Counted from the stretch's first letter, positions 26,254-44,912 are shown. The stretch is 64,000 bases of DNA from an uncultured Solirubrobacteraceae bacterium (GCA_963710665.1 CAVQBC010000005.1:158370-222369), one strand, 5' to 3'. Notes: generated by a model not told the origin, from the sequence alone. Program-made: numbers and translations.

Positions 26254-26278
26254 GTTCCGCCAGCGAACACGCTATTCG
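26254..26278. promoter_or_regulatory. operator-like motif, site A (IclR / ABC-hyu operon intergenic region)
   Basis: GTTCC-GCCAG-CGAAC-ACGCT-ATTCG, followed by ACAAGCGG. One of four related sites. Confidence 0.6.
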
Positions 26279-26424
26279 ACAAGCGGTACAAGCCGTGCCA
26301 CCGTGAGCTGTGACGACGGGCCATTGGCGACGGAGGAGGCGGCCGACAAGCTGCCGCTCGAGATCGGCAACGGACCTGAGGTGATCGAGGCCCATCGCCG
26401 GCATGTTTGAGGAGAGGAGTCCAC

Positions 26425-27585
26425 TTGCCTGACGACCACCCCCACGTCTGGGAGATCGACACCGACACGATGGAGTGGGTCGAGCGGCCGAGGTCCCGGA
26501 GGCACTTCCTGATGGGGGTCGGCGGCACGGTGCTCGGCGCCGGCCTGCTCGGGACGCTGGCGGGCTGCGGCGGCAGCGACGACGAGGGCAGCGCGTCGGC
26601 CGAGGGCGGCAAGCCGGGCGAGGGCAAGACGCTCGCCCTCTCGCTCAACGGGTTCAACACCTACGACCAGGACACCGCCGAGGGGTTCCTGAAGGCGCTG
26701 CAGGGCACGGGCTACCGCCTGATCGGCGCCGAGGCCGCGTTCGACGCGACGAAGGAGCTCGACAACATCCGCCAGCTCGTCGCGCGCCAGCCGGACGGGC
26801 TCGCCGTCCTCGCCGCCAGCGCCGAGGGCGCGGCGCGCGGCGCCGCGGAGGCGAAGCGCAAGGGCATCCCCACCGTCGCCCAGATCTGGTTCCCGGTCTC
26901 CAAGGAAGTGGACTCCGCGGCCTGGGACGCCGCGCTGCAGCTCGACACCGACGAGGGCGGCAAGCTCACGATCGACTTCATCGCCAAGACCCAGGGCGTC
27001 ACCGAGGGCAAGATCCTCGAGATCACCGGCCTCGACGCGCAGCCGTTCAGCGAGGGGTACAAGCAGGGGCTGCGCAAGGCGCTCAAGCAGTACCCCGGGC
27101 TGCGGGTGGTGGCCTCCCAGCAGGGCTTCTACACCGCGGACGGCGCGCTGAAGGTGCTGCGCCCGATGCTCTCGGCCCACCCCGACGCGAAGGTGATCAT
27201 CGACTATGCGGCCGAGATGGGCAACGCGATCGCCCAGGAGCTCAAGCGCCGCAACAAGACGAACATCGTCCACGTCACCTCCGACGGCAACGACGCGATG
27301 ATCCCGCTGCTCAAGGAGGAGGACGGCGCCTACATGAAGGGCGACCGCTGGTTCTCGCCCGGCGACCAGGGCGTCGTCTCGGTCAAGGTCCTGCGCGCGC
27401 GCATCGAGAACGACGAGGATCCGACGAACGAGAACATCGGCGTCGAGGGCTTCACGATCGTGCCGGGGACCAAGGACCCGATCGTGATCAAGACGCGCCA
27501 GGAGCTCGCGACGGCGGAGAACATCGACTCGCTGCCGCCGTTCGGCTACAACGAGCTCGCGAGCAAGATCCCGTTCGGCGGCTGA
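26425..27585 (+). CDS. ABC transporter substrate-binding lipoprotein (CUT2 / periplasmic-binding-protein type, Tat-like signal)
   Basis: RSRRHFLMGVGGTVLGAGLLGTLAGCGG (twin-arginine plus lipobox), then a LacI/RbsB-like binding fold. TTG 26425 lies 5 nt after GAGGAGAGGAG; the ORF-track start at 26407 and ATG 26470 are alternatives. Confidence 0.85.
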   Translation: MPDDHPHVWEIDTDTMEWVERPRSRRHFLMGVGGTVLGAGLLGTLAGCGGSDDEGSASAEGGKPGEGKTLALSLNGFNTYDQDTAEGFLKALQGTGYRLIGAEAAFDATKELDNIRQLVARQPDGLAVLAASAEGAARGAAEAKRKGIPTVAQIWFPVSKEVDSAAWDAALQLDTDEGGKLTIDFIAKTQGVTEGKILEITGLDAQPFSEGYKQGLRKALKQYPGLRVVASQQGFYTADGALKVLRPMLSAHPDAKVIIDYAAEMGNAIAQELKRRNKTNIVHVTSDGNDAMIPLLKEEDGAYMKGDRWFSPGDQGVVSVKVLRARIENDEDPTNENIGVEGFTIVPGTKDPIVIKTRQELATAENIDSLPPFGYNELASKIPFGG

Positions 27586-29117
27586 TGGGGATCGAGTCCG
27601 ATGCCGGCGCCCGCCTGATCGCCCTCCGGGGGCTCGGGAAGGAGTACCCGGGCGTGCGGGCGCTGGACGACGTCTCGTTCGACATCGCGCCCGGGTCGGT
27701 CCACGCCCTCGTGGGGGAGAACGGCGCCGGCAAGTCGACGCTGATCAAGCTGATCGCCGGCGCGATGCGCCCGTCCGCCGGCGAGATCGAGATCGACGGC
27801 CGGCCCCACGCCGCGCTGACCCCGCGCTCCGCCCGCGCGCTCGGGATCCGCCTCGTCGCCCAGGAGCGCCAGTCCTGCGGGGACCTGACGGTCACCGAGA
27901 ACGTGCTGCTCGGGCGCATCCCGACGCGCGGCGGCGCGTACGGGCCCGTGTCCTACGGCCGCGCGCACAGCGAGGCGCGCGAGCGGCTGGAGGAGATCGG
28001 GCTCGACGTGGATCCCCGCCGCCGGATGCGCGAGCTGTCGGTTGCGCAGGTCCAGCTCGTGGAGATCGCGCGGGCGCTGTCGGCGAGCGCCCGCCTGGTG
28101 ATCATGGACGAGCCCACGGCGGCGATGAGCGGCGCCGACGTGCGCGTGCTGTTCGGGGTGATCGCCAAGCTGCGGGCGCGGGGCGTGAGCTTCCTCTACG
28201 TCTCGCACCACCTCGAGGAGATCTTCGAGCTCGCGGACACCGTGACGGTCCTGCGCGACGGCCGCCACGTGACCACGCAGCCGCTCGAGGGCCTCGACAT
28301 GGACCGGCTCGTCGAGCTGCTGCTCGGCCACAAGCCGGAGACCCTCGACGTGGCCCAGCGGGAGAGCCGGCCGTCGGAGACGATCCTCGAGGTCGTCGAC
28401 GCCCACAAGAAGCCGGGGCTGCGCGGCGTCGGCCTGCGCGTGCGCGCCGGCGAGGTCCTCGCCGTCACGGGCGGCATCGGCTCCGGGCGCCGCGAGCTCG
28501 CCCGCTGCGTCGCGGGCATCGAGCAGCCCGAGGCGGGCGAGGTGCGGCTGGCGGGCGGAGCGCGCCTGCGCAACCCCCGCCAGGCCATCCGCCACGGGAT
28601 CGCCTTCCTGCCCGAGGACCGCAAGTACGAGGGCGTGCTGGCCGACCTCGACGTGGTCGACAACGTGGGGATCGGGCGGCGGGCCGCGCAGCGCTCGATG
28701 CTCGACCTGCCCGGCCGCCGCCGCCGCGACGCCGCCGAGATGGTCGCGCGCCTGCGCGTCAAGACCCCGAGCCTGCGCCAGGCGGTGCGGCTGCTGTCGG
28801 GCGGCAACCAGCAGAAGATGCTGCTCGGCCGCTGGCTGAACGTCGGGATCCGGGTGCTCGTGCTCGACGCTCCCACGGAGGGCGTCGACATCGGCAGCCG
28901 GCTCGAGATCTACGGCTTCCTGCGCGACCTCTCCGACGCCGGCGTGGCGGTGGTCATCTTCTCTTCCGACTTCGAGGAGGTCCGGCTGGTGGCGGATCGT
29001 GCGGTGGTGCTCCGGCGCGGGAGGGTCGCGGGCGAGCTGAGCTCCGGCGAGATCACCGAGGAGCGCCTGTACACGCTCGAGTACGGGACCCCGCCCGAGG
29101 GGGTGAAGGCGGCATGA
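27585..29117 (+). CDS. sugar-type (CUT2) ABC transporter ATP-binding protein with duplicated ABC domains
   Basis: From ATG 27585 (TGATG overlap with the SBP stop). First domain: GENGAGKSTL and VIMDEPTAAM. Second domain: LSGGNQQK and LVLDAPTEGVD. Confidence 0.9.
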   Translation: MGIESDAGARLIALRGLGKEYPGVRALDDVSFDIAPGSVHALVGENGAGKSTLIKLIAGAMRPSAGEIEIDGRPHAALTPRSARALGIRLVAQERQSCGDLTVTENVLLGRIPTRGGAYGPVSYGRAHSEARERLEEIGLDVDPRRRMRELSVAQVQLVEIARALSASARLVIMDEPTAAMSGADVRVLFGVIAKLRARGVSFLYVSHHLEEIFELADTVTVLRDGRHVTTQPLEGLDMDRLVELLLGHKPETLDVAQRESRPSETILEVVDAHKKPGLRGVGLRVRAGEVLAVTGGIGSGRRELARCVAGIEQPEAGEVRLAGGARLRNPRQAIRHGIAFLPEDRKYEGVLADLDVVDNVGIGRRAAQRSMLDLPGRRRRDAAEMVARLRVKTPSLRQAVRLLSGGNQQKMLLGRWLNVGIRVLVLDAPTEGVDIGSRLEIYGFLRDLSDAGVAVVIFSSDFEEVRLVADRAVVLRRGRVAGELSSGEITEERLYTLEYGTPPEGVKAA

Positions 29118-30211
29118 GCACGACCGAGCGGGCTCCGGCCACGACCCGCGAGCGCGCCGGCGCGCGCCAGGCCGCCGGCGGGCTGCGCGAGCGCCTGCGC
29201 TACTCGGAGAACCTGCGCACCTACATCCCGCTGCTGGTGGCCATCATCGGCCTGAGCCTCTACGCCGCCGCCAACTCGGACCTCTACCTCACGCTCGACA
29301 ACATCCAGGTCCTGCTGTCGAGCGTCGCGGTGCTCGGCCTCATCACGGTCGGGATGACGCTGATCATGATCGCCGGGCAGCTCGACCTGTCGGTCGGGGC
29401 GGCCGCGACGCTCTCGAGCGTCATCGGCGCGCAGATGATCTCGGGCGGCAGCAGCACGGTGGTCGCCGTCCTCGTGATGCTCCTGCTGCCGATGGCGATC
29501 GGCTGCCTGGTGGGCATCCTCGTGGTGAGCACGGGCGTGCAGCCGTTCATCGTGACCCTCGGGCTGCTGAGCGTGCTGCAGTCGATCTCGCTGATCCAGA
29601 CCGGCCAGCGCCCGATCTCCATCGGCTTCAACCTGTCCGAGATCGACACGACGATCGTCCTCGGGATCCCGCTCCCGTTCTGGATGTTCGTGATCGCGCT
29701 GCTGGTCGGGAGCCTGATCCTGCACTTCTCCCGGCTCGGGCGCAACGCCTTCGCGGTGGGGTCCAACGAGGAGGCGGCGTTCCTGTCGGGCGTCGCGGTC
29801 GGTCGCGTGAAGATCATCCTGTTCTCGCTCAACGGGCTGCTGGTCGGCCTCGGCGGCCTGCTGCTCCTCTCGCGCCTGGGGGCCGGCGACGCGGCGTCCG
29901 GCCAGGGCCTCGAGCTCGACGCCATCGCGGCGGCCGTCATCGGCGGCGCCTCGCTGCTCGGCGGCCGCGGCTCGATGTTCGGGACGTTCCTCGGCGTGAT
30001 GCTGCTCGGCGTGATCGCCAACAGCCTGACCCTGCTCGACGTGTCGTCCTTCTACCAGCGTCTCGTCCTCGGGCTGCTCCTCATGTTCGCGGTGACGGCG
30101 ACCGCGATCGCGGAGAAGCGCAGGGGGTCGGCGGAGTCCGTCGCCGACGTCCTGCGGCGCGTCACCACTGGTCGCCGAACCATGCCCTCGGGCGGAAAGG
30201 AGCCCAGCTGA
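29114..30211 (+). CDS. ABC transporter permease (RbsC/branched-type, CUT2)
   Basis: About 10 TM segments. The start overlaps the ATPase stop (ATGA). Confidence 0.9.
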   Translation: MSTTERAPATTRERAGARQAAGGLRERLRYSENLRTYIPLLVAIIGLSLYAAANSDLYLTLDNIQVLLSSVAVLGLITVGMTLIMIAGQLDLSVGAAATLSSVIGAQMISGGSSTVVAVLVMLLLPMAIGCLVGILVVSTGVQPFIVTLGLLSVLQSISLIQTGQRPISIGFNLSEIDTTIVLGIPLPFWMFVIALLVGSLILHFSRLGRNAFAVGSNEEAAFLSGVAVGRVKIILFSLNGLLVGLGGLLLLSRLGAGDAASGQGLELDAIAAAVIGGASLLGGRGSMFGTFLGVMLLGVIANSLTLLDVSSFYQRLVLGLLLMFAVTATAIAEKRRGSAESVADVLRRVTTGRRTMPSGGKEPS

Positions 30212-32283
30212 TGCGCGTGGGTATCGATGTCGGAGGGACCTTCACGGACCTCTTCGCCTACGACGAGGCCAGCGGCGAGACCCACTCCGCGAAGGTCCTC
30301 ACGACGCTCGACAACCAGGCGCGCGGGGTCAGCCAGAGCGTGCGCGCCGCCGGGATCGACCTCGCCGGGGTCGCGTTCCTCGCGCACGGCACGACCACCG
30401 GCACGAACGCGCTGATCGAGCGCAAGGGGTCGCGCTGCGGGCTGCTCACGACCGAGGGGTTCCGCGACGTCCTCGAGATCATGCGGACGGACCGCGAGTT
30501 CGGCTACGACCTGTCGTGGGAGAAGCCGCGCGCGCTCGTCCCGCGGCGCCTGCGCTTCGAGGTGCCCGAGCGCGTGCTCATCGACGGCTCCATCGAGACG
30601 CCGCTGGACGAGGACGCCGCCCGCGCCACGATCGCGGCGCTGCTCGCGACCGGTGTCGAGGCGATCGCCGTCGCCCTTCTGCACTCCTACGCGAACCCGG
30701 TGCACGAGCAACGGCTGCGCGAGCTGATCGCGGAGGCCGACCCCGGGGTCGCGGTGTCGATCTCGAGCGACGTCAACGCCGAGTACCGCGAGTACGAGCG
30801 CACGAACACGACGGTGGTCGACGCCTACGTCAAGCCGGTGATGGTGCGCTACATCGAGCGCCTCGTCTCAGAGCTGCAGACCGGCGGCCTCGAGCCGCGC
30901 CCGTTCATCATGCAGGGCAGCGGCGGGATGGTGACCGCCGAGCGCGCGACCGAGCGCCCGATCGGCACGCTCTCCTCCGGTCCCGCGGCGGGCGCCATCG
31001 CCGCGGCCAAGATCGCCCAGAGCGCCGGCTTCGCCGACATCGTCACCTTCGACGTCGGCGGGACGAGCACGGACGTCGCGCTGATCTCCGGCGGCCGGCC
31101 GGACCTGAGCCTGCTCAAGCAGGTCGAGTGGGGGCTCCCGGCGCGCGTGCCGATGCTCGACGTCGAGTCGGTCGGCGCCGGCGGCGGCAGCATCGGGTGG
31201 ATCGACCAGGGCGGCGCCCTGAAGATGGGCCCGCAGTCGGCGGGCTCGGACCCCGGTCCCATCTGCTACGGCGGTGGCGGCACCGAGCCCGCGCTGTCGG
31301 ACGCGCTGCTGCTGCGCGGCGTGCTCGGCGAGCAGCTCGCCGGAGGCAGCCTGCACCTCGACCGCGAGGCGGCCAGGGCGGGCGTGCTGGCCCGGCTGGC
31401 GGAGCCGCTCGGGCTCACGCTCGAGCGCGTCGTGAGCGGGATGGTCGAGATCGCCCAGGCCAACATGGCCAACGCGGTGCGGTCGGTATCGATCTGGAAG
31501 GGGCTCGATCCGCGCGACCTCACGCTCGTCGCCTTCGGCGGCGCCGGGGGGATGGTCGCCGGCGAGGTCGCCCGCACCCTCGGGATCCCGCGCGTGCTGA
31601 TCCCGCCCGTGCCCGGCAACTCGTGCGCGATGGGCCTGCTGATGACGGACTTCCAGGAGGACGAGTCGGTCGCGTTCCTGTCACGCGCGCGCGACGCGGA
31701 CCTCGACGTGCTCAACGAGCGGCTCGGCGCCCTGCAGGACGCCACGATCACCACCCTCCAGCGCCAGGGCGTCGCGGAACGCGACATCGTGGTGTCGCAC
31801 GTCGCGGACATCCGCTACCACGGCCAGATCCACGAGCTGCAGGTCCCGTTCGAGGCCTTCCCGGTCACCCCGGAGGTGCTCGAGCGGGCCATCGCGTCCT
31901 TCGAGGACACCTACGAGGACGTCTACACGATCCGCCTGCAGGGCGGGGTCCCCGAGATGGTCAGCCTGCGGGTCATCGCCTCGGGCGCCCTGCCGCAGTA
32001 CGAGCCGGCCGGGTTCACCGACGGCGCGCACGGCGCCGCACCGACCGGGTCGCGCGACGTGCTCGAGGGCGACCGCTGGGGCGCGGTCGACGTCTACCGC
32101 CGCTACGACCTCGGCTCCGGGACCTCGCTGCGGGGCCCCGTGATCCTCGAGGAGGAGGGGTCGACCATCTGGGTCGCGTCCGACATGAGCGCGGACATCG
32201 ACGCGCGGGGCAACCTGCTCATCACCACGAACGCGGAGCGCGGGACGGCCGAGACCCGGCCGCTCGCGGAGGAGGTGGCCTGA
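30211..32283 (+). CDS. hydantoinase/oxoprolinase family protein, A subunit (HyuA-like)
   Basis: MRVGIDVGGTFTDLF...HGTTTGTNALIERKG; 690 aa. The start overlaps the permease stop. Confidence 0.9.
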   Translation: MRVGIDVGGTFTDLFAYDEASGETHSAKVLTTLDNQARGVSQSVRAAGIDLAGVAFLAHGTTTGTNALIERKGSRCGLLTTEGFRDVLEIMRTDREFGYDLSWEKPRALVPRRLRFEVPERVLIDGSIETPLDEDAARATIAALLATGVEAIAVALLHSYANPVHEQRLRELIAEADPGVAVSISSDVNAEYREYERTNTTVVDAYVKPVMVRYIERLVSELQTGGLEPRPFIMQGSGGMVTAERATERPIGTLSSGPAAGAIAAAKIAQSAGFADIVTFDVGGTSTDVALISGGRPDLSLLKQVEWGLPARVPMLDVESVGAGGGSIGWIDQGGALKMGPQSAGSDPGPICYGGGGTEPALSDALLLRGVLGEQLAGGSLHLDREAARAGVLARLAEPLGLTLERVVSGMVEIAQANMANAVRSVSIWKGLDPRDLTLVAFGGAGGMVAGEVARTLGIPRVLIPPVPGNSCAMGLLMTDFQEDESVAFLSRARDADLDVLNERLGALQDATITTLQRQGVAERDIVVSHVADIRYHGQIHELQVPFEAFPVTPEVLERAIASFEDTYEDVYTIRLQGGVPEMVSLRVIASGALPQYEPAGFTDGAHGAAPTGSRDVLEGDRWGAVDVYRRYDLGSGTSLRGPVILEEEGSTIWVASDMSADIDARGNLLITTNAERGTAETRPLAEEVA

Positions 32284-32284
32284 C

Positions 32285-34127
32285 ATGGCAACCATCGAGA
32301 CGCCCCCCGGGCGGGCGAGCATCGACGCGGTCACGCTCGAGGTCATGCGCAACGGCTTCATCCAGGTGTGCGAAGAGGTCACGATCACGATGCTCAAGAC
32401 CGCGCACTCGGTGATCTTCAACGAGGGCAAGGACCTCTCCACCGGGGTGTTCGACCGCGACGGGCGGCTGATCGCGCAGGACAAGCAGGGCTGCCCGGTG
32501 CACATCGCCGCCATGCCGCAGTCCGTCAAGGCCGGCATCGCCCAGTACGGGATCGAGAACATGAACCCGGGCGACGTCTTCCTGATCAACGACTCCTACA
32601 GCGGCGGGACGCACCTGCCCGACGTCACGATCTTCGCGCCGGTGTTCTGGGAGGACGAGCTCGTCGGCTTCATCGGCAACCGCGGCCACCACACCGACGT
32701 CGGCGGCATGGCCGCCGGCTCGATGCCCGGCGACGCCACGGAGATGTACCAGGAGGGCCTGATCCTGCCCGCGGTGCGCATCTTCACGGCCGGCGAGCGC
32801 AACCGGGACGTGTGGAACATCATGCTCGCCAACGTCCGCCTGCCCGGGAACACCGAGGGCGACATCGCGGCGCAGATGGCCGGGGTCCAGACCGGGATGC
32901 GGCGCTTCCACTCGATGCTCGAGCGCTACGGCACGGAGGCGCTCCAGGCCGGGATCGACGAGATCATCGCCTACTCCGAGCGCCACATGCGCAGGGAGAT
33001 CGCGAAGATGCCGGACGGGACCTACCACTTCGCCGACTACATGGACACCGACGGCGTCACCGGCACGCCGGTGCGCATCGAGGTCACCGCGCGCAAGTCC
33101 GGGAGCGACATCGAGTTCGACTTCACCGGCACCGACCCGCAGGTCGGCGGCGCCGTGAACTGCGTCTTCAGCGTCACGCTCGCCTCCGTGTGGATCGGGA
33201 TGCTGATGGTCACCGACCCGGCGATCCATCCCAGCGAGGGGGCCTTCGCGCCGGTCACCGTGACCGCGCCCCTGGGCACCGTCGTGAACCCGCGCAAGCC
33301 GGCCTCGACCGTGAGCGGGCTGACCGAGACCTGCAACCGCATCATCGACATCGTCATCGGGGCGCTCTCCCCGGGCGTCCCCGACCGTGCGGTCGCCGGC
33401 GAGCTCGGCAGCTGCAACGTCTACACGCTGGGTGGCCGGGGCGCCGGCGACGACGGGCGAGCAGTGGGTCGCGATCCTCAACCCCAAGGGCGGCTGGGGC
33501 GGCATGGAGGCCAAGGACGGGTGGACCTGCATCCAGGACCCGCTCTCGAACTGCCGCTGCCAGCCGGCCGAGGCGCTCGAGAACGCCTTCCCGGTGCGCG
33601 TGCGCCAGTTCGCCCTGCGGACGGGCCCGGAGGGCGCCGGGCGCCATCGCGGCGGCTTCGGGATCGTGCGCGACATCGAGGTCACCGCGGACTGCGTGGT
33701 CTCCACCTGCCTGGACCGCAGCGTGATCGCGCCGTTCGGGCTCTTCGGCGGCGGCGACGGCGCGCCGAACCTGATGTACCTGCGCCGCAACGGCACCGAG
33801 ACCTGGGAGCCGCTCAACTCGCGGCAGTCGAACATGCCGCTCAAGACGGGCGACGTCGTGCGGATCGAGACCGCCATCGGCGGCGGGTTCGGCGACCCCC
33901 TCGAGCGACGCCCGGAGGACGTGGCGGACGACGTGGCCGACGAATACATCAGCCGCGAGGACGGGGAGACGGTCTACGGGGTCGTGCTCGACGACGCCCT
34001 CGGCGTCGACGAGGGCGCGACGGCCGCGTGCCGGGAAGAGCTGCGCTCCAACGGCGGCTCGCCCGAGCTGTCCCGGCCGCCGGCGGGCGTCGAGCCGCGC
34101 CGACCCGTCTTCGAGGCCGCCTCATGA
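32285..34127 (+). pseudogene. hydantoinase B/oxoprolinase family protein (HyuB-like) interrupted by a +1 frameshift
   Basis: The N-terminal part (DAVTLEVMRNGF...NDSYSGGTHLPD) is in the 32285 frame. The C-terminal part (EQWVAILNPKGGWGG...GGFGDPLERRPEDV) is in the 33387 frame. The junction is at GAC GAC GGG C GAG (33455-33458); removing one G restores DDGEQW. Confidence 0.8.
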
Positions 34128-35311
34128 GCGCCGGCCTCGCCTCCGGCGACCGCGCGCTCTCGGCGGAGTTCCTCACCGAGGTCCTCGGCGACCTGGTGCG
34201 CACGCCGAGCGTCAACCCCGGCATCTTCGAGGAGGCGATGGCCGAGCGCGTCCAGGCGTGGCTCGAGCCGACCGGCGCCGAGGTCACCACGGTCGAGATG
34301 GCCCCCGGCCGTCCCTCGGTGGCGGCCGTCCTGGGCAACCGGGACGGCGCGACCCGCCTGGTGCTCAACGGCCACATGGACACGGTGCCGATCGACGACG
34401 CGGCCGGGTGGGACTTCGACCCGTTCGGCGCCGAGATCTCCGACGGCTACCTCTTCGGGCGCGGCGCGTGCGACATGAAGGCCGGCCTCGCCACCCAGAT
34501 CGGGGTCGCCCACCGCCTGGCCGCGCACGCGGACGAGCTCGACGGCGCGCTCATCCTGCACTTCGCCGCGGGGGAGGAGTGCGCCGAGCCCGGCTCGCTG
34601 TCGCTGGTCCAGGCCGGGTTCACGGGCGACGTCGGGATCGTCACCGAGCCGACCCAGCTCGGCGTCGCGGTCGCCGAGCGGGGCCTCGCCTACTACCGCA
34701 TCCGGATCAAGGGGCGGTCGATCCACGCGAGCAAGGCGCACCTCGGGCTCAACCCCGTGCGGCGCCTCGCCCCCGTCCTCGACGCGCTCGCCGACTACCA
34801 CGACGAGATCACGCAGCGCACGCATCCGCTGCTGCCCGGGGGCTCGTGCACCCCGACGGTGGTCCAGGGCGGGGTCAAGGAGAACGCGGTCGCCGACTAC
34901 TGCGAGCTGCTGCTCGACCGCCGGCTGCTGCCGGGCGAGACGGTGGAGGGCGAGCTCGACGCGATGTCCGCCCGGCTGAAGGGCATCCAGCGCGACGATC
35001 CCGAGTTCCAGTTCGAGATCGAGCCGTTCGAGCATGCGTTCGCGCCCGCCGAGATCTCCGTGGACTCGCCGTTCGCCGGCCGCGTCGTCGAGGCGGTCGA
35101 GCAGATCACCGGGGTGCGCCCCGAGATCTCCGGCACGCCGTACGCCAGCGACGTGCGCACGCTCGTCAACGACGCCGCGATGGAGGCGGTCACCTTCGGC
35201 CCCGGCAACGTCGCGGAGTGCCACTGCGCGAACGAGCGCGTGTCGCTCGCCGAGGTGGAGCAGGCCGCGCGCGTGATCGACCGGGTCGCCCGCTCGCTGC
35301 TGCTGCCGTGA
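34124..35311 (+). CDS. M20 family metallohydrolase (ArgE/DapE/carbamoyl-amino-acid amidohydrolase type)
   Basis: LNGHMDTVP, GRGACDMKAG and AAGEECAEPGS. The ATG overlaps the hyuB stop (ATGA). Confidence 0.85.
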   Translation: MSAGLASGDRALSAEFLTEVLGDLVRTPSVNPGIFEEAMAERVQAWLEPTGAEVTTVEMAPGRPSVAAVLGNRDGATRLVLNGHMDTVPIDDAAGWDFDPFGAEISDGYLFGRGACDMKAGLATQIGVAHRLAAHADELDGALILHFAAGEECAEPGSLSLVQAGFTGDVGIVTEPTQLGVAVAERGLAYYRIRIKGRSIHASKAHLGLNPVRRLAPVLDALADYHDEITQRTHPLLPGGSCTPTVVQGGVKENAVADYCELLLDRRLLPGETVEGELDAMSARLKGIQRDDPEFQFEIEPFEHAFAPAEISVDSPFAGRVVEAVEQITGVRPEISGTPYASDVRTLVNDAAMEAVTFGPGNVAECHCANERVSLAEVEQAARVIDRVARSLLLP

Positions 35312-35330
35312 GCGGTGAGCGGTGGTTTGT

Positions 35331-36261: not shown

Positions 36262-36785
36262 GCGCGCTGGGAGTCGAGCAGCGGCCGACCGCGGACGAGC
36301 CGTGGGTCACCGTCCATCTCACCGTCAACGGGGTGCCGGTGACCCGCACGACCAGCGCGCGCCGGCTGCTCAGCGACTTCCTGCGCCACGAGCTCGGGCT
36401 GCGGGGCACCCACGTCGGCTGCGAGCACGGCGTGTGCGGGTGCTGCACCGTCATGCTCGACGGCAGCTCGGCGCGCTCCTGCCTGCTGCTCGCCGCCCAG
36501 TGCGACGGCGCCGAGATCACCACCATCGAGGGCCTCTCGCCGGACGACGGCGGCATGAGCGTCGTGCAGCAGGCGTTCCGCGAGAGCCACGCGCTGCAGT
36601 GCGGGTTCTGCACGCCGGGCTTCGTCGTGACCGTCACCGAGTTCCTGCGCGAGCACCCGGGGCGCACCGAGTTCACCGACGACGAGCTGCGCGAGGCGCT
36701 CAGCGGCAACCTCTGCCGCTGCACGGGCTACCAGAACATCGTGGCGGCGGTGCGGCGCGCGGCCGAGCTGCAGGCGGCCGGCTGA
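36258..36785 (+). CDS. (2Fe-2S)-binding small subunit (CoxS-like)
   Basis: GCEHGVCGCCTV and CGFCTPGF...NLCRCTGYQNI. ATGA overlap with the upstream gene. Confidence 0.9.
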   Translation: MSALGVEQRPTADEPWVTVHLTVNGVPVTRTTSARRLLSDFLRHELGLRGTHVGCEHGVCGCCTVMLDGSSARSCLLLAAQCDGAEITTIEGLSPDDGGMSVVQQAFRESHALQCGFCTPGFVVTVTEFLREHPGRTEFTDDELREALSGNLCRCTGYQNIVAAVRRAAELQAAG

Positions 36786-36787
36786 CG

Positions 36788-39213
36788 ATGGCGACGCAGA
36801 CCTTCGGCGAGCGGATCACGCGCAACGAGGACCCGCGGCTGCTGCGGGGCGAGGGCCGCTACCTCGACGACGTCGACGCCCACGGCGCGCTGCATGTCGC
36901 GTTCCTGCGCTCGGCGGTCGCCCACGCGCGGATCGCCAGGCTCGACGTCTCCGCGGCGCGCGCCCACCCCGGCGTCGTGCGCGTCTACACCGCGGAGGAC
37001 CTCGGGCGGCTCGACCAGCCGTCCCCGCTGCTGATCCCCCATCCCGCGATGACCCACCCGCGCACGCAGCGCCCGCTGGCGAGCGACGAGGTCACCTACG
37101 TCGGTCAGACGGTGGCCTGCGTGGTGGCCGTCGACCGCTACGTCGCCGAGGACGCGATCGAGCTGATCGAGGTCGCCTACGACCCGCTGCCGGTGCTCGT
37201 CGACCTCGAGGAGGCGGCCGCGGAGGGCGCGCCGCTGGTCCACGCCGACGTCCCGGGCAACCTCGCCTGCCACCACGTGCAGACCAACGGCGATCCCGAC
37301 CGGGCGTTCGCGGAGGCCGAGGTGACGGTGTCCGAGACGTTCACGATCGATCGCAGCGCCGGGATGCCGCTCGAGGCGCGCGGCGTGCTCGCGATCCCGG
37401 ACACCCGCTCCGGCGAGCTCACGGTCTACGACTCGACGCAGGCGCCGATCTCGATCCGCGGCGGGCTCGCCTCGCTCTTCCGCCTGCCCGAGAACAAGGT
37501 GCGCGTGATCGCCCCCGATACGGGCGGCGGGTTCGGCACCAAGGTGATGATGTTCTACCCCGAGGAGATCGTGGTGCCGTTCGCGGCGCTCGACCTCGGC
37601 CGGCCGGTCAAGTGGGTCGAGGACCGCACCGAGCACTTCATCGGCTCGAACCACGAGCGCCGGCAGATCCACACGATCGAGCTGGCGGCGCGCCGCGACG
37701 GCACGGTCCTCGGGCTGCGCGACACCTTCCTCCACGACACCGGCGCCTTCATCCCCTACGGCATCGCCGTGGCGCAGGTCGCGGCCGCCCAGATCGCCGG
37801 CCCGTACAAGATCGAGCACATCGACGTCGGCTTCCGGGCGATCTACACCAACACCGTGCCGGTGAGCCCCTACCGCGGCTGCGGGCGCCCGCAGGCGTGC
37901 CTGACCATCGAGCTCGCGATGGACAAGCTGGCCGCCGAGCTCGGGATCGACCGCATGGAGCTGCGGCGGCGCAACTTCATCGCCCCCGACGACTTCCCCC
38001 ACACCCGCGAGGGCCTGATCTTCGCCGACGGCAAGCCGGTCGTGCTCGACTCCGGCGACTACCCCGGCGCGCTCGCCGACGTGCTCTCAGAGCTCGACTA
38101 CGAGGGCTTCCTGCGCGAGCAGGCCGCCGCGCGCGAGCAGGGCCGCTACCTCGGGCTCGGGCTGGCGTGCTACATCGAGGGGACCGGCCTCGGCCCGTAC
38201 GAGGGCGCGCGCGTCCAGGTCCGCCCGACCGACGGCAGGGTGTTCGTCGCGACCGGGCTCACCAGCCAGGGGCAGGCCCACCAGACGACGTTCGCCCAGA
38301 TCGTCGCCGACCGGCTGGGCGTCGACCCGTCCGAGGTGGAGGTCACGACCGGGGACACGGGCGAGTTCCCCTACGGCGTGGCCACCTTCGCGAGCCGCGC
38401 CGCCGTCGTGAGCGGCACGGCGATCCACCGGGCCGCGCAGGGGCGGTGCGCGAGCGGGCGATCGAGCTCGCGGCCAACATGCTCGAGGCCGACCCCGAGG
38501 ACCTCGTGCTCGAGGAGGGCATGGTGCGCGTGAAGGGCTCGCCGGGCCACGGCGTGCCGCTCAAGCAGATCGCGGTGGCGTCGAACCCGCTGCGCTACGC
38601 CTTCGACGAGGACGCGCAGGCGGCCACGCAGTTCGCGCCCGCGCATCCCCCCGACGCGAACAAGCCGCTGCCCGAGGGCGAGCACCCCGGCCTCGAGGCC
38701 ACCGCGTGGTACAGCCCGGAGCTCTCGACGTGGGCGAGCGGGACGCACGCGGCCGTCGTCGAGGTCGACCCCGAGACGTGCGAGGTGCGCTTCCTGCGCT
38801 ACGTGTGCTCGCACGACTGCGGGAAGATGATCAACCCCCAGGTGGTCGAGGGGCAGGTCCTCGGCGGGGTCGCCCAGGGGGTCGGCGGGGCCTACTACGA
38901 GCGCATGTCCTACGACGAGGACGGCCAGCTCACCAACGCGTCGCTGATGGAGTTCCTCATGCCCTACGCGACCGAGGTGCCGGCGGTGACGGTCCTGCAC
39001 CGCGAGACCCCGTCGCCGCTCAACGAGCTCGGCGTCAAGGGCGTGGGGGAGGCGGGCGCGATCCCGGTGCCGGCCCTGTTCGCCGCCGCCGTCCAGGACG
39101 CGCTGCAGCCGCTCGGCGTCCGCGTCACCCAGGTGCCGCTCAGCCCGAACCGCATCCACGAGCTGATCGAGGCCGCGGGTAACGGCGACCGGAGCGCTCA
39201 GTGGCCGGGGTGA
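36788..39213 (+). pseudogene. molybdopterin-binding large subunit (CoxL/XdhA-like) interrupted by a -1 frameshift
   Basis: The N-terminal ~550 aa (RNEDPRLLRGEGRYLDD...YRGCGRP) are in the 36788 frame. The C-terminus (AVRERAIELAANMLE...GVKGVGEAGAIP) is in the 37612 frame. The junction is a G-run at 38440-38443; adding one G restores AAQGAVRER. Confidence 0.8.
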
Positions 39214-40046
39214 CCCGGACGCCAGCCGATCGCCAGCGAGAGCGACGCGGCGGCCTCGGACACGGCGCCCACGAGCCGCTCGAGGTAGGCGTCGTCGTTC
39301 ATCCGCGCGCTGCGGGCGATCAGCGTGGTGCAGGCGACGACGTCCCCGCCCGCGTCGCGCACGGGACTCGCGACCGAGCCGACGCCCAGCTGGAGGTCGT
39401 CGCGGGTCACGGCGTAGCCGGCCGCCCGGACCTCCTCGATGCGCTCCCGCAGCTGCTCGGGGTCGGTGATCGTCAGCGCCGTGAACGGGCGCAGCGACCC
39501 CTCGAGCACGCGCTCGCGCACGACCTTCGGCGCGTAGGCGAGCAGCAGGTGGCCCTTGGAGGCGACGTTGAGCGGCCACGAGAAGCCGGGCTGGGTCTTG
39601 GCGATGCTCGTCGGGGCGTCGACGTACATCAGCGTGATGACGCGCAGGCCCTGGCGCTCGTTGAGCTGCGCGGCGCAGCGCATCTCCTCGCCGGCCGGCT
39701 TGAGGTGCGGCGGCGCGGCCTGCACGAGCGGGTGGCTGTTCAGGTAGGCCGAGCCGAGCCGGTAGAGGTGCGACCCCACGGAGTACACGCCGGTGGCGGA
39801 GTCGACCCGCAGGTACCCGTGCTCCTCGAGGTAGGCGAGCGTCCGGTAGGCCGTGGTCCACTTGAGGCCGAGCCGGCTCGCGAGCTCCTTGGCGCGCATC
39901 GGGCGCTCGGCGACCGCCTCGATGATCGTCATCGCGCGGCCGACGCCCTGCAGCGCGGCGTAGCGGCCGGGGCTCGAGCGCGGGCCCGCACCCGCCTCGC
40001 CGGTGAGCGCTTCGACGTCCGCGAGATCGGCTGACCGGCGAGCCAT
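39198..40046 (-). CDS. IclR family transcriptional regulator
   Basis: From ATG 40046: GVGRAMTIIEAVAERPMRAKELASRLGLKWTTAYRTLAYLEEHGYLRVD plus an effector domain. Confidence 0.85.
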   Translation of the reverse strand: MARRSADLADVEALTGEAGAGPRSSPGRYAALQGVGRAMTIIEAVAERPMRAKELASRLGLKWTTAYRTLAYLEEHGYLRVDSATGVYSVGSHLYRLGSAYLNSHPLVQAAPPHLKPAGEEMRCAAQLNERQGLRVITLMYVDAPTSIAKTQPGFSWPLNVASKGHLLLAYAPKVVRERVLEGSLRPFTALTITDPEQLRERIEEVRAAGYAVTRDDLQLGVGSVASPVRDAGGDVVACTTLIARSARMNDDAYLERLVGAVSEAAASLSLAIGWRPGHPGH

Positions 40047-40069
40047 GGCGCGACGGCATCCTAACGCCG

Positions 40070-40094
40070 GTCCGGACAGCGAACACGGTATTCG
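40070..40094. promoter_or_regulatory. operator-like motif, site C (IclR / hyuA2 divergent region)
   Basis: GTCCG-GACAG-CGAAC-ACGGT-ATTCG; 24 nt from the IclR ATG. Confidence 0.6.
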
Positions 40095-40125
40095 CGAGGC
40101 GGACGTCAGCGCGGGAACACCGGGC

Positions 40126-42175
40126 CTGCGCGTCGCGGTCGACACCGGCGGCACGTTCACCGACGTCGTCGCGATCGACGAGGCGGCGGGGCGGACCTAC
40201 GTGACCAAGACGCCGTCGACCCCGCGCGAGCCGTGGGTCGCGCTGATGGACGGGCCTGCGCAAGATCGCGGCCGAGGCGGGCGGCGAGCTCGGCGGCGTC
40301 TCGACGCTCATCCACGGCACCACCACCGCGACCAACGCGCTGCTCGAGGGCCGCTTCGACCGGCTGGGGCTGATCGTCACGCGCGGCTTCCGCCACCTGC
40401 TCGAGATCGCGCGCCAGTCGGTCCCCGACGGCTACGGCAACTCCTACTTCTGGGTCAAGCCGCCGCGCATCGTCGCGCTCGAGCGCGTGGAGGAGGTCGG
40501 CGGGCGCATGGACCACCACGGGGCGGAGCTCACCGCGCTCGACTCCGACGACGTGCGCGCCGCCGGCGAGCGCTTCGCCCGGCTCGGCGTGGACTGCGTC
40601 GCGGTCTGCCTGCTGCACGCCTACGCCAACCCCGCCCACGAGCTGCGCGCGCGCGAGCTGCTGACCGAGTCGCTGCCGGACGCGTTCGTGTCGCTGTCCT
40701 GCGAGGTCCTGCCCGAGTACCGCGAGTACGAGCGCGCGATGACCACCACGATCGACGTGATGGTCAAGCCACACACGCGCGACTACCTCATGCGCGGCCG
40801 GCGCGAGCTCGACGCGGCGACCGGCGGCGTGCCGTTCCTGATCATGCAGAGCAACGGCGGTGTCGTCGGCGTCGAGCGCGCAGCGGAGAAGCCGATCACC
40901 ACGCTGCTCTCCGGCCCGGCCGCGGGCGTGCTCGGGGCGAGCTTCGTCGCCGAGCGCGCGGGCTACCGCGACCTGCTCACGCTCGACGCCGGCGGGACCT
41001 CCACCGACGTCGCGCTCGTCGAGGACCTGCGGCCGCTCTACACGACCGAGGGCCGCTTCGACCGCTTCCCGATCAAGACCCCGATGGTCGACGTCGTGGC
41101 GGTCGGGACCGGCGGCGGGTCGATCGCCTGGATCGGCCCGCAGCGGGCGCTCAAGGTCGGGCCGCGCAGCGCGGGGGCCGACCCCGGGCCGATCTGCTAC
41201 CTGCGCGGCGGGACCGAGCCGACGGTGACCGACGCCAACCTCGTGCTGGGGCGGATCCCGCCGCGGCTCGCGTGGGGCCAGGTGCCGCTCGACGTCGACG
41301 CCGCGCGCGAGGGGGTCGCGCGCCTGGGCGCGGAGCTCGGGCTCGGGCTCGAGGACACCGCGCTCGGCATCCTCGAGATCGCGGCGTGGAACCAGTCCAA
41401 CGGGATCCGCCGCGTGTCGATCGAGCGCGGCCGCGAGCCGAGCGACTACTGCCTGGTCGCCTTCGGCGGGTCCGGCGGCATGCTCGCCCATCACGTCGCG
41501 GGGCTGCTCGGGATCCGGACCGTGCTCGTGCCCGAGAACCCGGGGAACCTCTCGGCGTTCGGCCTGCAGGTGACCGACATCAAGCGCGACTACGTCCGCA
41601 CGCTGGTGCGCGACGAGACGCGCGCGAGCGCCGCGGAGCTCGAACGGGCCTGGACCGAGCTCGAGCGGCGCGGGCGCGACGACCTGCTGGGCGAGGGCGT
41701 CCCCGCCGAGGCGATCGTCCTGCGGCGCTCGGCCGACATGCGCTACGTCGGCGAGGCGCACGAGGTGCAGGTGCCGGCGGCCGAGGGGCCGCTCACCGAC
41801 GCGACGCTGCCGGCGCTGTTCGGCGCCTTCCACGGGGTGCACGAGCGGACGTTCGGCTACGCCTACGAGGGCCTCCAGCACGGCGAGATCGTCAACCTCC
41901 GGGTGGAGGCGGTCGGGTCCGTGCGCCGCCCGCGGCTGCAGGCCGACGAGGCCGCCCCGGCGGCGAGCGAGGCCGAGCCCGTCGAGCACCGGGACGTCGT
42001 CTTCGACGGCCTCGGCGCGGTCGCGTGCCCGATCCACCTGCGCGAGCGTCTCGCCCCGGGCGCGCGGCTGGACGGCCCCGCGGTCGTCGAGGAGTCGGGG
42101 TCCACCGTGGTGGTCTACGACGGCTGGACCGCGCGCGTGGACCGGTACCGCAACCTGATCACCGAGCGAGGTTGA
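40126..42175 (+). pseudogene. second hydantoinase/oxoprolinase A-type subunit (HyuA2) with a +1 frameshift; start codon uncertain
   Basis: (L/M)RVAVDTGGTFTDVVAIDE...VALMDG is in the 40003 frame. It continues as LRKIAAEAGGELGGVSTLIHGTTTATNALLE in the 40487 frame. The junction is at GAC GGG C CTG (40252-40255). CTG 40126 aligns with the MRVGIDVGGTFTD start of HyuA1; the in-frame ATG at 40045 would cover operator C. Confidence 0.75.
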
Positions 42176-42176: not shown

Positions 42177-44087
42177 ATGGCGACCCAGTCACGCGAGCGC
42201 GCGGCGTCCGGCCGGCTGAACCCCGTCACGCTCGAGGTCATCGAGGGCTCGGTCCGCTCCGCGGAGCTCGAGATCGAGGCGGCGGTCGAGCGCACCGCCC
42301 GCTCGCCGATGATCCGCGACCAGCACGACTACCGCGTGGCGCTGTTCGACCGTCGTGGGCGCAAGCTCACCGGCCGCTCGTACTCGGCCCTGGTCGAGCC
42401 CGTGCTCGAGCGCTTCGACGTCGACGACATGCAGCCCGGCGACGTCTTCTTCTTCAACGACCCCTACCAGTCGGCGGGCGGGATCGGGCACGTGCCCGAC
42501 CTGTGCACGACCGTCCCGATCTTCGCCGACGGCCGCGTGATCGCCTTCGCCCAGGTCTTCGGCCACCATGACGACGTCGGCGGGATGGTGCCGGGCTCGC
42601 TGCCTACCAACGCCACCTCGATCTACCAGGAGGGGCTGCTCGTCCCGCCGCTCAAGCTCTACGACGCGGGGCGGCCGAACGAGGGCGCGCTGGCGATGAT
42701 CGAGCGCAACTCCCGGCTCCCCGACCACCTGCGGGGCGACATCGACGCCGAGATCGGCGCCTGCCTGGTGGGCTCGCGGCGCATCGTCGCGCTCGCCGAG
42801 CGCTACGGGGCCGGCGTCGTGGAGGAGGCGTTCGACGAGCTGATCGCCAAGTGCACGCGCGTGGTGCGCGAGGAGCTGCTCCCGAAGATCGCCGACGGCG
42901 TCTACCACTGGGAGGACTACGTCGAGAACGACGGCGTCGGCGAGCCGCGGCTGCACGCGCTGCGGATGACGATGACCAAGACCGCCGACAAGCTGGTCCT
43001 CGACTTCAACGGCACCGATCCGCAGGCCCGCGGGCCCATCAACTGGGCCACGAACTTCAACGACGGGCGGTTCGCCAAGAAGTGGATCGGCCCGATCCTG
43101 CGCAACCTTGCCGACACGCCCGAGCGCGCGGCCGAGATCGACATCAACGAGGGCATCTGCGACGTGATCGACATCGTCTTCCCGCCCCCGGGGACGCTCG
43201 TCTCGCCGCGCTTCCCCGCCCCGGTCGGAATGCGCTTCTTCACGTTCCTGCGCGTGCTGGGGATCTTCGCGGGGTGCCTCGCCAAGGCGACCGGCGGGCG
43301 CATGCCGGCCGACCAGGAGACGATCCGCATCTGGGGGATCCACGGCTCCGACGAGGAGCGCTTCTTCCTCTTCCGCGAGGTGCTCGGCGGCGGCTCGGGC
43401 GGCCGCTGGTACGCGGACGGCTCGGACGTCATCCACATCGTCCCGAACTCGCGCAACCTCCCGGCCGAGTTCTCGGAGACCCGCTTCCCGATCCTCGTCG
43501 AGCAGCTCGGGCTCAAGCAGGACTCCGGCGGCCCCGGCGAGCGCCGCGGCGGGCTCGGGTACGACAAGCGGATCCGCGCCCTGCGCGACGTCAAGCTGCT
43601 CTCCAACGCCGACCGCTCCATCCTCAACACCTACGGGCTGGCGGGCGGGCGCGCCGGCGGGCGCTACGCGGTGTCCGTCCAGCGCCCGGACGCGGACGCC
43701 GCGGAGCCCGTGCCGGGGCTGGCCGACGACGTCGACGTGCCCGCGGGCTCGGTCATCCGCATCGTGACCACGGGCGGCGGAGGCTGGGGGGACCCGCTGC
43801 GCCGCGACCCCGAGGAGCTGCGCCTCGACGTGTGGCGCGGCGTCGTGTCGCCCGAGAGCGCCGAGCGGGACTACGGCGTGGTCCTCACCCCGGGCGATCC
43901 GCCGCGGCTCGACCTCGAGGCGACGGCGGCGCGGCGCGCCGAGCTCGCCGCCGCGCGCGCCGCGCCGCGGATGTTCGACCGCGGGGCCGGCTACGAGGAG
44001 ATGCTCGAGCGCGCGGGGCCGGTGCGGCGCCCGCCGGGCTGGGACGATCCGGACGCCGTCGACGCCGACGGTGAGCCCACCGCCTAG
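42177..44087 (+). CDS. second hydantoinase B/oxoprolinase-family subunit (HyuB2; acetone-carboxylase/caprolactamase-like clade possible)
   Basis: NPVTLEVIEGSVRSAELEIEAAV...NDPYQSAGGIGHVPD...GGGGWGDPLRRDPEEL; 636 aa. Confidence 0.9.
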   Translation: MATQSRERAASGRLNPVTLEVIEGSVRSAELEIEAAVERTARSPMIRDQHDYRVALFDRRGRKLTGRSYSALVEPVLERFDVDDMQPGDVFFFNDPYQSAGGIGHVPDLCTTVPIFADGRVIAFAQVFGHHDDVGGMVPGSLPTNATSIYQEGLLVPPLKLYDAGRPNEGALAMIERNSRLPDHLRGDIDAEIGACLVGSRRIVALAERYGAGVVEEAFDELIAKCTRVVREELLPKIADGVYHWEDYVENDGVGEPRLHALRMTMTKTADKLVLDFNGTDPQARGPINWATNFNDGRFAKKWIGPILRNLADTPERAAEIDINEGICDVIDIVFPPPGTLVSPRFPAPVGMRFFTFLRVLGIFAGCLAKATGGRMPADQETIRIWGIHGSDEERFFLFREVLGGGSGGRWYADGSDVIHIVPNSRNLPAEFSETRFPILVEQLGLKQDSGGPGERRGGLGYDKRIRALRDVKLLSNADRSILNTYGLAGGRAGGRYAVSVQRPDADAAEPVPGLADDVDVPAGSVIRIVTTGGGGWGDPLRRDPEELRLDVWRGVVSPESAERDYGVVLTPGDPPRLDLEATAARRAELAAARAAPRMFDRGAGYEEMLERAGPVRRPPGWDDPDAVDADGEPTA

Positions 44088-44878
44088 CCCGCCTTGCGCT
44101 CGGCGTAGGTGCCGCCCTCGCGGGCGAGCTGCTCGACCAGCCGCTCGAGGCCGTCGATGATCGCGGCGAGGAAGCGCTCGCCGGACTCCGCCGAGGCGGT
44201 CTGCGGCGCGCCGAAGATCGCCGGATGACCGGCCGCGGCCGTGGGGAACGGCGCGTACGTGCGGGCCGGCTCGACCGGCGCCACCAGGTCCCACGCGACG
44301 AGCGGCGCGTGCACGCCGTCGAGGCGCTCCATGTGCACGAGGTGCGGGCGGGTCGCGAGCTGGAACGACGTCTCGAGCTCGCACGCGTGCCCCATGCCGC
44401 CCACGGGGGAGCGGCGGAGCGCGTGCAGCTCGGCGGCCGCCGGCTCCCAGTAGCTCAGGGCGCTGATCTGTACGGGGGCAGCGCCGGCGGCGTCCACGAT
44501 CCGGCGCGCGGCGACGTCGACCGCCGTGCCGTTGGGCCGGTGCCCGTTGAGCAGCCAGATGCGGCGGAAGCCCTGGCGCACGAGGCTCCCGCCGATCTCG
44601 ACGAGGACCTGCTGGAAGGTCTCGGGCGACAGCGTGATCGTGCCGGGGAAGCCCATCCACATCTCGGCGTAGCCGTAGGGCAGCGCGGGCGCGACGACGC
44701 CGCCGACGCGCTCGGCCAGCAGCCGCGCGACCTCGCCCGCCTGGTGGGTGTCCGTGTCGAGCGGCATGTGCGGGCCGTGCGCCTCGGTCGACCCGATGGG
44801 CACGATGACCAGCCGGTCCGCCGCGGCGAGCTCGCCCGCCTCCGGCCAGGTGTGATCTCCGAGCAGGACGCTTGCCAT
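44084..44878 (-). CDS. creatininase (creatinine amidohydrolase/ArfB/MftE) family amidohydrolase
   Basis: The real gene is the C-terminal 264 aa of the 954-aa ORF, from ATG 44878 with AGGAG upstream. Motifs: VIVPIGSTEAHGPHMPLDTD, LLNGHRPN and GHACELETS. Confidence 0.85.
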   Translation of the reverse strand: MASVLLGDHTWPEAGELAAADRLVIVPIGSTEAHGPHMPLDTDTHQAGEVARLLAERVGGVVAPALPYGYAEMWMGFPGTITLSPETFQQVLVEIGGSLVRQGFRRIWLLNGHRPNGTAVDVAARRIVDAAGAAPVQISALSYWEPAAAELHALRRSPVGGMGHACELETSFQLATRPHLVHMERLDGVHAPLVAWDLVAPVEPARTYAPFPTAAAGHPAIFGAPQTASAESGERFLAAIIDGLERLVEQLAREGGTYAERKAG

Positions 44879-44887
44879 GCCGCTCCT

Positions 44888-44912
44888 ATTCGCTGGACGA
44901 ACACGATGTTCG
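44888..44912. promoter_or_regulatory. operator-like motif, site D (directly upstream of the creatininase-family gene)
   Basis: ATTCG-CTGGA-CGAAC-ACGAT-GTTCG. Begins 10 nt from the start codon, abutting the Shine-Dalgarno. Confidence 0.6.

Follow-up and report, generated by a model that had tools for sequence, protein, structure and literature searches.

Operator-like sites and two IclR-family regulators in a catabolic gene cluster of an uncultured Solirubrobacteraceae bacterium

The IclR-family regulators PcaR, PcaU, PobR, HmgR and others recognize operators of the motif class GTNCG-N5-6-CGNAC (PMC8222616, Suvorova & Gelfand 2021). PcaU binding needs an additional direct half-site, in 32 orthologous groups three boxes alternate in direction, tandem sites at a distance of about 20 bp have been read as tetramer binding, and site centres lie 20–80 nt upstream of gene starts (PMC8222616); the operator of PcaR is GTTCGATAATCGCAC (PMC12455658). 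Here we describe sites of this kind in a 64,000-nt stretch of DNA from an uncultured Solirubrobacteraceae bacterium (GCA_963710665.1, CAVQBC010000005.1:158370-222369; hereafter “the window”). A first-pass annotation had noticed a 25-bp motif at four non-coding places (sites A–D) near two IclR-family genes, iclR1 and iclR2, and had proposed that it links four transcription units into one IclR regulon.

The sites resemble those of PcaR, PcaU and PobR in half-site sequence and spacer geometry (GTTCG-N5-CGxAC), and those of PcaU and PobR in combining a palindrome with a direct-repeat half-site 10 bp away, which makes three boxes (PMC8222616). IclR regulons of such gene content have already been seen computationally, since the 2021 table of regulated clusters of orthologous groups (COGs) lists HyuA, HyuB, CoxM, CoxL and COG1402 (PMC8222616). 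The site strings of the window have no match in the accessible part of that paper’s supplement text.

Operator-like sites and regulators in the window

All four 25-bp strings are present where they had been placed, and ACAAGCGG follows sites A and B, as described. The reported neighbourhoods were also recovered by a frame plot of third-position GC (GC3) and Pfam: site A lies in the divergent gap between iclR1 and a substrate-binding protein (SBP) gene, site B ends 33 nt before the GTG of coxM (35389), and site C is inside the 79-nt divergent gap between iclR2 and hyuA2. Site D does precede a creatininase-family gene, on the minus strand, but at 9 rather than 10 nt from its ATG (44878). The three half-sites originally described correspond to three strong boxes; three to four boxes is the better description, with a weak fourth after A (CGGTA), B (CGGAA) and C (CGGAC). 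Site D, read in gene direction, has its strong boxes in positions 2–4.

Reverse-strand matches of the 25-bp pattern show that the symmetry continues outwards, and the layout as a whole is one of 5-bp boxes in alternating orientation with 10-bp phasing, three of them strong and the fourth usually weaker. Alignment of the window sites with 14 sites from related genomes gave the consensus (AG)CGAAC-A-N3-T-RTTCG-N3-AG-CGRAY-A. Both RTTCG-N5-CGAAC and CGAAC-N5-RTTCG occur in all of sites A–D, which places them in the IclR operator class GTNCG-N5-6-CGNAC, and the sites also have the form of three-box or tandem IclR operators (at least three alternating boxes, or dyad centres about 20 bp apart); one related locus (L062) has two operator cores offset by 20 bp. 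The core centre is 21 nt from the nearest start codon in the fifth site introduced below (O_R), 27 nt in D, 41 nt in B, 41 and 39 nt in C, and 136 nt in A.

Across the window the core CGAAC-N5-RTTCG has six strand-matches at four loci, compared to 0.23 expected from dinucleotide-preserving shuffles, and none of 100 shuffles attained six. With the spacer varied from 0 to 11 nt, only N5 yielded CGAAC/RTTCG matches (zero for N0–N4 and N6–N10), and a search with the degenerate 25-bp pattern allowing up to two mismatches returned the same four loci. All four sites are intergenic, in a window that is about 8% non-coding.

No other copy had been noticed in the first pass, but a fifth, variant site is present 2 nt upstream of the iclR1 ATG (Table 1). 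This site, O_R, has ATCCG/CGGAT boxes in place of RTTCG/CGAAY. A position weight matrix (PWM) trained on 13 sites, all from outside the window, ranked the five sites at the top of the window (D 36.7, B 30.9, C 28.6, O_R 27.9 and A 27.2 bits), with the next non-site match at 9.7 bits; in 100 Markov simulations of 64 kb the maximum averaged 12.7±2.4 bits, and the highest was 24.1. PWMs built from the window and from other genomes each recover the other’s sites. A type-neutral three-box matrix scored only five loci in the window at 18 or above, namely A–D and O_R (18.0), and found no further site there above the background or null expectation. The proposed link between transcription units is supported, with five sites and up to six promoters instead of four.

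IclR1 and IclR2 both belong to the IclR family, with PF09339 and PF01614 above gathering scores, and are paralogues with 45% identity. Their best NCBIfam model is that of PcaR/PcaU/PobR (TIGR02431), at 126.2 and 123.1 bits relative to a cutoff of 284.75; judged by these scores, they are similar to that subfamily but fall outside it. The top Protein Data Bank match of IclR1 is the PcaR structure 8eju, and the nearest relatives of both proteins come from soil metagenomes and from Solirubrobacterales/Thermoleophilia metagenome-assembled genomes. IclR1, IclR2 and their relatives form a subfamily with a common recognition helix of the form W-[A/T]-T-x-[H/Y]-R, with WAT in IclR1, its orthologues and alphaproteobacterial proteins, and WTT in IclR2-type proteins.

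The motif class, the PWM cross-validation and, as described below, conservation, linkage to IclR genes and enrichment in non-coding DNA all support the proposal of an IclR operator regulon. The five sites are very probably operators for the neighbouring regulators, whether IclR1, IclR2 or both.

Conservation of the sites in related genomes

Related loci (L numbers) were collected from a reference-genome scan with family alignment, which gave 71 loci; window proteins were compared by tblastn, and more contigs were fetched independently. In L001–L003, iclR1 is divergent from SBP-ABC-hyuA1B1-M20 (tblastn; ABC, ATP-binding cassette), and the gene order of this operon is the same in L001–L003, L072 and L077. 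An iclR gene is divergent from hyuA2B2-coxMSL in L004, L035 and L046, with a creatininase-family gene nearby in L004 and L035; L062 has iclR2 divergent from coxMSL, and L052/L053 (Pimelobacter, Nocardioides) have the order hyuA2B2-iclR-coxMSL.

Sites are kept in the same gaps in orthologous loci of Thermoleophilia and other Actinomycetota. The sites in these gaps are exact or nearly so. L001 and L002 have A-type sites in the SBP–iclR gap, and in both, B-type sites directly follow M20 with ACAAGCGG kept and a coxG gene next; L072 has both types. In L004 a D-type site stands 22 nt before the creatininase orthologue, arranged as in the window. In L080/L081 (IclR2 73%) the 53-bp gap between hyuA and iclR holds a C-type site, and equivalents of site C are also present in L004, L005, L059, L062 and L073. 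Sites upstream of iclR occur in L004, L005, L059 and L062 as well, and L073/L074 have a group of phased sites between SBP and iclR, with one more before a second iclR. A 29.8-bit site precedes coxM in L082, where others precede a cyclase gene and an amidase gene, and L084 has a site before the SBP gene. Taken together, orthologous sites (at coxM/coxG, creatininase, hyuA, SBP or iclR) were found in L001, L002, L004, L005, L059, L062, L072–L077 and L080–L084. Sites before the regulator’s own gene and before adjacent operons, conserved in orthologous loci, are the pattern of a local IclR regulon.

In the closest relatives, the gene after the B-type site is coxG (SRPBCC) or a coxG-coxM fusion (L001 136-783, L072 1-781). 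In the window, coxM follows site B directly, and there is no coxG in the interval 35312-35388.

When the iclR1-SBP spacer was aligned for four genomes (window, L001, L002, L072), only site A and O_R were conserved; O_R is identical at 20 of 20 positions, and the spacer is otherwise unalignable. A DNA loop between O_R and site A was considered for the window, where their centres are 126 bp (12.0 turns) apart, and was dropped because the spacing is not in helical phase across genomes (147, 92 and 131 bp in L001, L002 and L072). Adjoining O_R is a TTGACG hexamer (26160-26165, plus strand; CGTCAA in the orientation of the alignment) that is invariant in the four genomes. It may be the -35 element of a second promoter towards the SBP operon; no convincing -10 partner was found for it.

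With a threshold of 14 bits, the window-derived PWM matches the 71 loci 172 times, compared to 33–56 in simulations. In the 350 bp upstream of IclR genes there are 103 matches per kb, 15–20 times as many as the 5–7 per kb of distant flanks. With a type-neutral weight matrix, used instead of a strict dyad regular expression that proved too narrow, a site upstream of the IclR gene exceeded the 95th percentile of the null in 45 of 57 WAT-type and 8 of 15 WTT-type loci (non-redundant). Site clusters of at least 20 bits were non-coding in 26 of 30 cases (P = 8e-20) in 63 high-GC loci totalling 1.1 Mb, 12.7% of it non-coding; the equal frequency in coding DNA that the first-pass annotation had named as a counter-indication was not seen across these loci.

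Two of the fetched contigs, both of Thermoleophilia type, L073 (jgi Ga0528792_000298, 1-20705) and L082 (1-19613), contain both IclR paralogues in rearranged clusters, along with additional genes for an amidase, a PF04199 cyclase, a CN_hydrolase, DUF1028, urease and a GntR regulator. The same operator stands before some of these additional genes, suggesting that the regulon is wider and varies.

In more distant IclR relatives (about 40% identity) from Alphaproteobacteria, the DNA upstream of the IclR gene has the box variant ATCC(G/A)/(C/T)GGAT, with unchanged 10-bp phasing. Alphaproteobacterial loci (L006–L071) carry several variant operators each (e.g., L019 at 7411/9841/19429, L017 at 8570/9418), and their IclR homologues sit in the same hyuAB-coxMSL-creatininase-ABC module.

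The two box types could reflect a division of labour between the paralogues, with IclR2 (W-T-T) reading the TTCG-type sites A–D and IclR1 (W-A-T) only the TCCG-type O_R. In such a two-tier circuit the entire cluster, with the operon divergent from iclR1, would be under IclR2. The ATCCG/CGGAT boxes of O_R are invariant beside IclR1 orthologues, and WAT regulators, mostly alphaproteobacterial, go with ATCC(G/A) central boxes while WTT regulators mostly go with RTTCG. However, this correlation between helix and box is confounded by phylogeny, and mixed sites exist (the outer boxes of site C are GTCCG/CGGAC, and L027, L052 and L053 have both types). TTCG-type A and B sites also stand beside a WAT IclR1 orthologue in L001, L002 and L072, and a search with IclR2 returned no homologue of its type from the 4.18-Mb chromosome of L001. 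Divided labour is thus unlikely in our judgement, and a helix code of WAT for TCCG and WTT for TTCG boxes, being confounded by phylogeny and contradicted by the mixed sites, was retained only as a lead.

Decidedly doubtful is the fuller scheme of two operator classes, one per paralogue, set by the residue after the invariant Trp (WAT for ATCCG, WTT for RTTCG), with alternative dimerisation modes implied by the three-box sites and two-tier control of an N-heterocycle/lactam pathway that is conserved, along with its operator family, from Thermoleophilia to Alphaproteobacteria. If true, the pathway under that circuit would comprise two ATP-dependent lactamases, a form-II CoxMSL-type hydroxylase, a creatininase-like hydrolase and a deacylase.

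A different origin of the motif altogether, be it another DNA-binding protein, a structural or RNA element (hairpin, attenuator or repetitive extragenic palindrome) or chance, is very improbable. The Gram-positive SOS (Cheo) box of LexA, CGAAC-N4-GTTCG, is found upstream of DNA-repair genes, and its half-sites resemble those described here. The N4 spacing, however, has no match in the window. The sites are flanked and followed by catabolic genes, and through two phyla they go with a single IclR subfamily. As inverted repeats the sites could form small hairpins, but folding z-scores (-2.7, -0.2, 0.05, -1.5 and -1.2) revealed no consistent stability beyond shuffled controls. Box changes are not compensatory (CGAAC is, for example, paired with ATTCG), so that box sequence rather than pairing is conserved, and terminator calling at sites B, C and D returned none. 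The orientation of the site relative to the gene varies among sites, which argues for an element acting at the level of DNA. Chance is excluded by the shuffles, the foreign-PWM scores and the non-coding enrichment.

Promoter elements and proposed mode of control

Promoter assignments were made from hexamers conserved across genomes and from their distance to start codons. B-type sites in four genomes share a layout of -35 TCGACA, 17–18 nt, -10 TAGGGT and 7–8 nt to the start codon. At the coxM promoter of the window (P_cox), TCGACA (35353-35358) and TAGGGT (35376-35381) are 17 nt apart, with TAGGGT 7 nt before the GTG; the -35 is near-consensus (5/6), and the -10 is good. Box 3 of site B (GTTCG) overlaps TCGACA, so ACAAGCGG is the 3' part of this hexamer plus box 4, and in L001, L002 and L072 a GTAGGGT block is conserved along with the operator. 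Since the -10 ends only 7–8 nt before the start codon, this layout implies that the mRNA of coxM (coxG in relatives) is leaderless.

The other sites also lie near promoter-like hexamers. A-type sites in L001 and L072 have TCGACA-17-TATCTT, and TCGACA at site A of the window (26276-26281) overlaps box 3. O_R overlaps a -10-like TATAGA read towards iclR1 (TATATT in relatives), and with 8 nt between TATAGA and the ATG, iclR1 may be leaderless too. At site C, the ATG of iclR2 is preceded at 11 nt by a -10-like TAGGAT (40058-40063, minus strand); the site covers the region upstream of TAGGAT and fills most of the divergent gap.

We propose that the sites act as follows. Each operator has three to four boxes at 10 bp centre to centre, and because of this spacing a dimer of dimers would place all helix-turn-helix (HTH) domains on one face of the DNA. 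The operator covers the -35 box at P_cox and at the SBP promoter of the orthologues, a -10-like element at iclR1, the -35/spacer region at iclR2, and the stretch just before the ribosome-binding site (RBS) of the creatininase-family gene. When no inducer is present, the bound regulator would most likely block RNA polymerase. Binding of a pathway substrate or intermediate to the IclR_C domain would release it, which would switch on ABC uptake, the two ATP-dependent, lactamase/hydantoinase-like enzymes HyuA1B1 and HyuA2B2, the ArgE/DapE-type deacylase, the CoxMSL-type hydroxylase and the creatininase-family amidohydrolase; both regulators would be autoregulated. Repression by occlusion is favoured because the operator covers a conserved -35/-10 pair, and other operators lie downstream of any possible promoter. 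The near-consensus -35 and good -10 of P_cox argue for a promoter that is intrinsically active and repressed.

Several observations weigh against this picture. The syntenic loci L035, L046 and L038 gave weak matches only, site A of the window has a poor -10 (CACCGT), unlike its orthologues, and a simple sigma-70 scan called no promoter at any of the four site regions. The closest subfamily and structure, PcaR/PcaU/PobR, are activators or dual regulators with sites also over the -35, and the operator centre of site B is near -41, 41 nt from the start of the apparently leaderless gene. These last two points would fit a regulator that is mainly a ligand-dependent activator at the catabolic promoters (class-II-like, near -41) and represses only its own gene, and the IclR family includes activators and dual regulators (PMC8222616; PMC12455658). 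However, the conserved near-consensus TCGACA and good TAGGGT at P_cox are atypical of activator-dependent promoters, site D is between any possible promoter and the RBS, a position typical of repression, and the same is true of site C, which fills the 79-nt gap, and of O_R over its -10-like element. We consider activation possible but rather unlikely, and repression remains the mode that we favour.

Gene content of the cluster and relation to described systems

The gene map (Table 1) was taken from third-position GC because the window is about 74% G+C, and it was confirmed by Pfam. HyuA1 and HyuA2 are 44% identical and HyuB1 and HyuB2 33%, as diverged paralogues. In NCBIfam the HyuAB proteins are nearest to caprolactamase CapAB but below its cutoff, the M20 protein passes the ArgE/DapE deacylase model, and CoxL is nearest to the aerobic-CODH-like group (CODH, carbon monoxide dehydrogenase); Pfam and NCBIfam assign coxMSL to the molybdenum hydroxylases of the aerobic CODH/xanthine dehydrogenase family. 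The creatininase-family protein falls below all equivalog cutoffs, those for creatininase and MftE included, and the ABC transporter of the SBP operon is of the CUT2 type. Together, the regulon genes suggest that a lactam, a hydantoin-like or another N-heterocyclic compound is taken up and degraded by ring opening. A literature search returned no paper describing this cluster or its substrate.

Table 1. Sites and genes of the cluster, with positions in the window.
Feature	Position	Strand	Description and evidence
Aldehyde dehydrogenase	23712-25286	+	GC3 frame plot, Pfam
iclR1	25261-26124	-	287 aa, recognition helix LPWATTHRLL; Pfam HTH_IclR + IclR_C
O_R (fifth operator)	26126-26154	.	palindrome ATATCCGCC-A-GGCGGATAT at 26136-26154, centre 26145
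Site A	26254-26288	+	GTTCC-N5-CGAAC-N5-ATTCG-N5-CGGTA
SBP operon (six genes)	26407-35311	+	frame plot, Pfam, NCBIfam
Peripla_BP_4 SBP	26407-27585	+	
ABC ATPase	27585-29117	+	
ABC permease	29114-30211	+	
hyuA1	30211-32283	+	
hyuB1	32285-34127	+	apparent frameshift ~33440
M20 deacylase, ArgE/DapE type	34121-35311	+	
Site B	35331-35365	+	ATTCG-N5-CGAAC-N5-GTTCG-N5-CGGAA
coxM	35389-36261	+	Pfam, NCBIfam, frame plot
coxS	36258-36785	+	
coxL	36785-39213	+	apparent frameshift ~38440
iclR2	39198-40046	-	282 aa, recognition helix LKWTTAYRTL; Pfam HTH_IclR + IclR_C
Site C	40070-40104	+	GTCCG-N5-CGAAC-N5-ATTCG-N5-CGGAC
hyuA2	from CTG 40126(?) to 42175	+	apparent frameshift ~40250
hyuB2	42177-44087	+	
Creatininase-family amidohydrolase	44084-44878	-	Pfam PF02633
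Site D	44888-44912	-	gene direction: CGAAC-N5-GTTCG-N5-CGAAT, then AGGAG + ATG directly
731-aa open reading frame, no family assigned	44962-47157	-	GC3 0.96

Three genes have apparent frameshifts, in hyuB1 (33430-33460), coxL (38435-38450) and hyuA2 (40245-40255), and there is a fourth candidate near 53682. Pfam profile coordinates run on across each of the three gene breaks, which coincide with short stretches of G or C (GACGGGCGAG, CAGGGGCGG and GGGCCTG). The L001 orthologue is in frame, and related long-read metagenome contigs (L072) have fragmented gene calls. With the breaks in G/C runs and a fourth candidate elsewhere, true pseudogenes were set aside as the first explanation for hyuB1, coxL and hyuA2. 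Indel errors of assembly in homopolymers appear likelier, because of the G/C runs, the in-frame L001 and the fragmented calls of the L072 type.

For hyuA2, the stretch from site C to the conserved N-terminus RVAVDTGGTFTD (from 40129) lacks ATG, GTG and TTG in every frame, and the CTG at 40126 is the only candidate in the interval 40085-40131. In the L080 orthologue, the ATG start sits within the outer box of the operator. The 731-aa open reading frame has a strong coding signal and no Pfam or NCBIfam match; it is on the same strand as the creatininase-family gene and ends 50 nt upstream of site D. An aminotransferase gene (47225-48550) and a large PAS-GGDEF-EAL gene (48552-51692, plus strand) follow just downstream of the cluster, with no operator before either.

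Among the 71 related loci, hyuA is present in 50, cox genes in 52, a creatininase-family gene in 46 and ABC genes in 52, so that the module of HyuAB-like ATP-dependent lactamase, CoxMSL, creatininase-family and ABC genes, with regulator and operator, recurs in 46–52 loci from two phyla. For a gene cluster of an uncultivated soil Thermoleophilia lineage, the analysis yields a regulatory map of high confidence, which includes operators, probable leaderless promoters and two proteins that are candidate sensors. The inducer, and through it the pathway, could be reached by using the regulators and operators as a reporter or biosensor. What we describe appears to be a local regulon of a well-known kind, which adds an example to a well-described regulatory class and no new principle; its value is as a handle on an uncharacterised, widespread catabolic module.

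As with PcaR, PcaU and PobR, the sites of the window overlap -35/-10 elements, and the regulator gene lies next to its target operon or is transcribed away from it. Those regulators govern aromatic-acid catabolism (the beta-ketoadipate pathway) in Pseudomonas and Acinetobacter, whereas the targets here are lactamase/hydantoinase-like, molybdenum-hydroxylase and amidohydrolase genes in an uncultivated Thermoleophilia-type actinomycete. They are also largely activators, in contrast to the promoter geometry of the window, which favours repression.

IclR repressors of the TtgV type bind as a tetramer (dimer of dimers) to about 35–42 bp with four imperfect half-sites that overlap the promoter, and are released by small molecules. 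The regulators proposed here would likewise act as tetramers on four half-sites overlapping a promoter. TtgV-type repressors differ in half-site sequence and in having efflux pumps as targets; we saw no close sequence relationship to IclR1 or IclR2, although no search was aimed at one.

In architecture the sites match the three-box motifs of Suvorova and Gelfand, which also have alternating boxes, with one pair GTNCG-N5-CGNAC and the other GAACA-N-TGTTC, and for which a tetramer was inferred. The present locus differs from those in having two paralogous regulators and five operators in one 19-kb cluster, one of the operators with an ATCCG variant.

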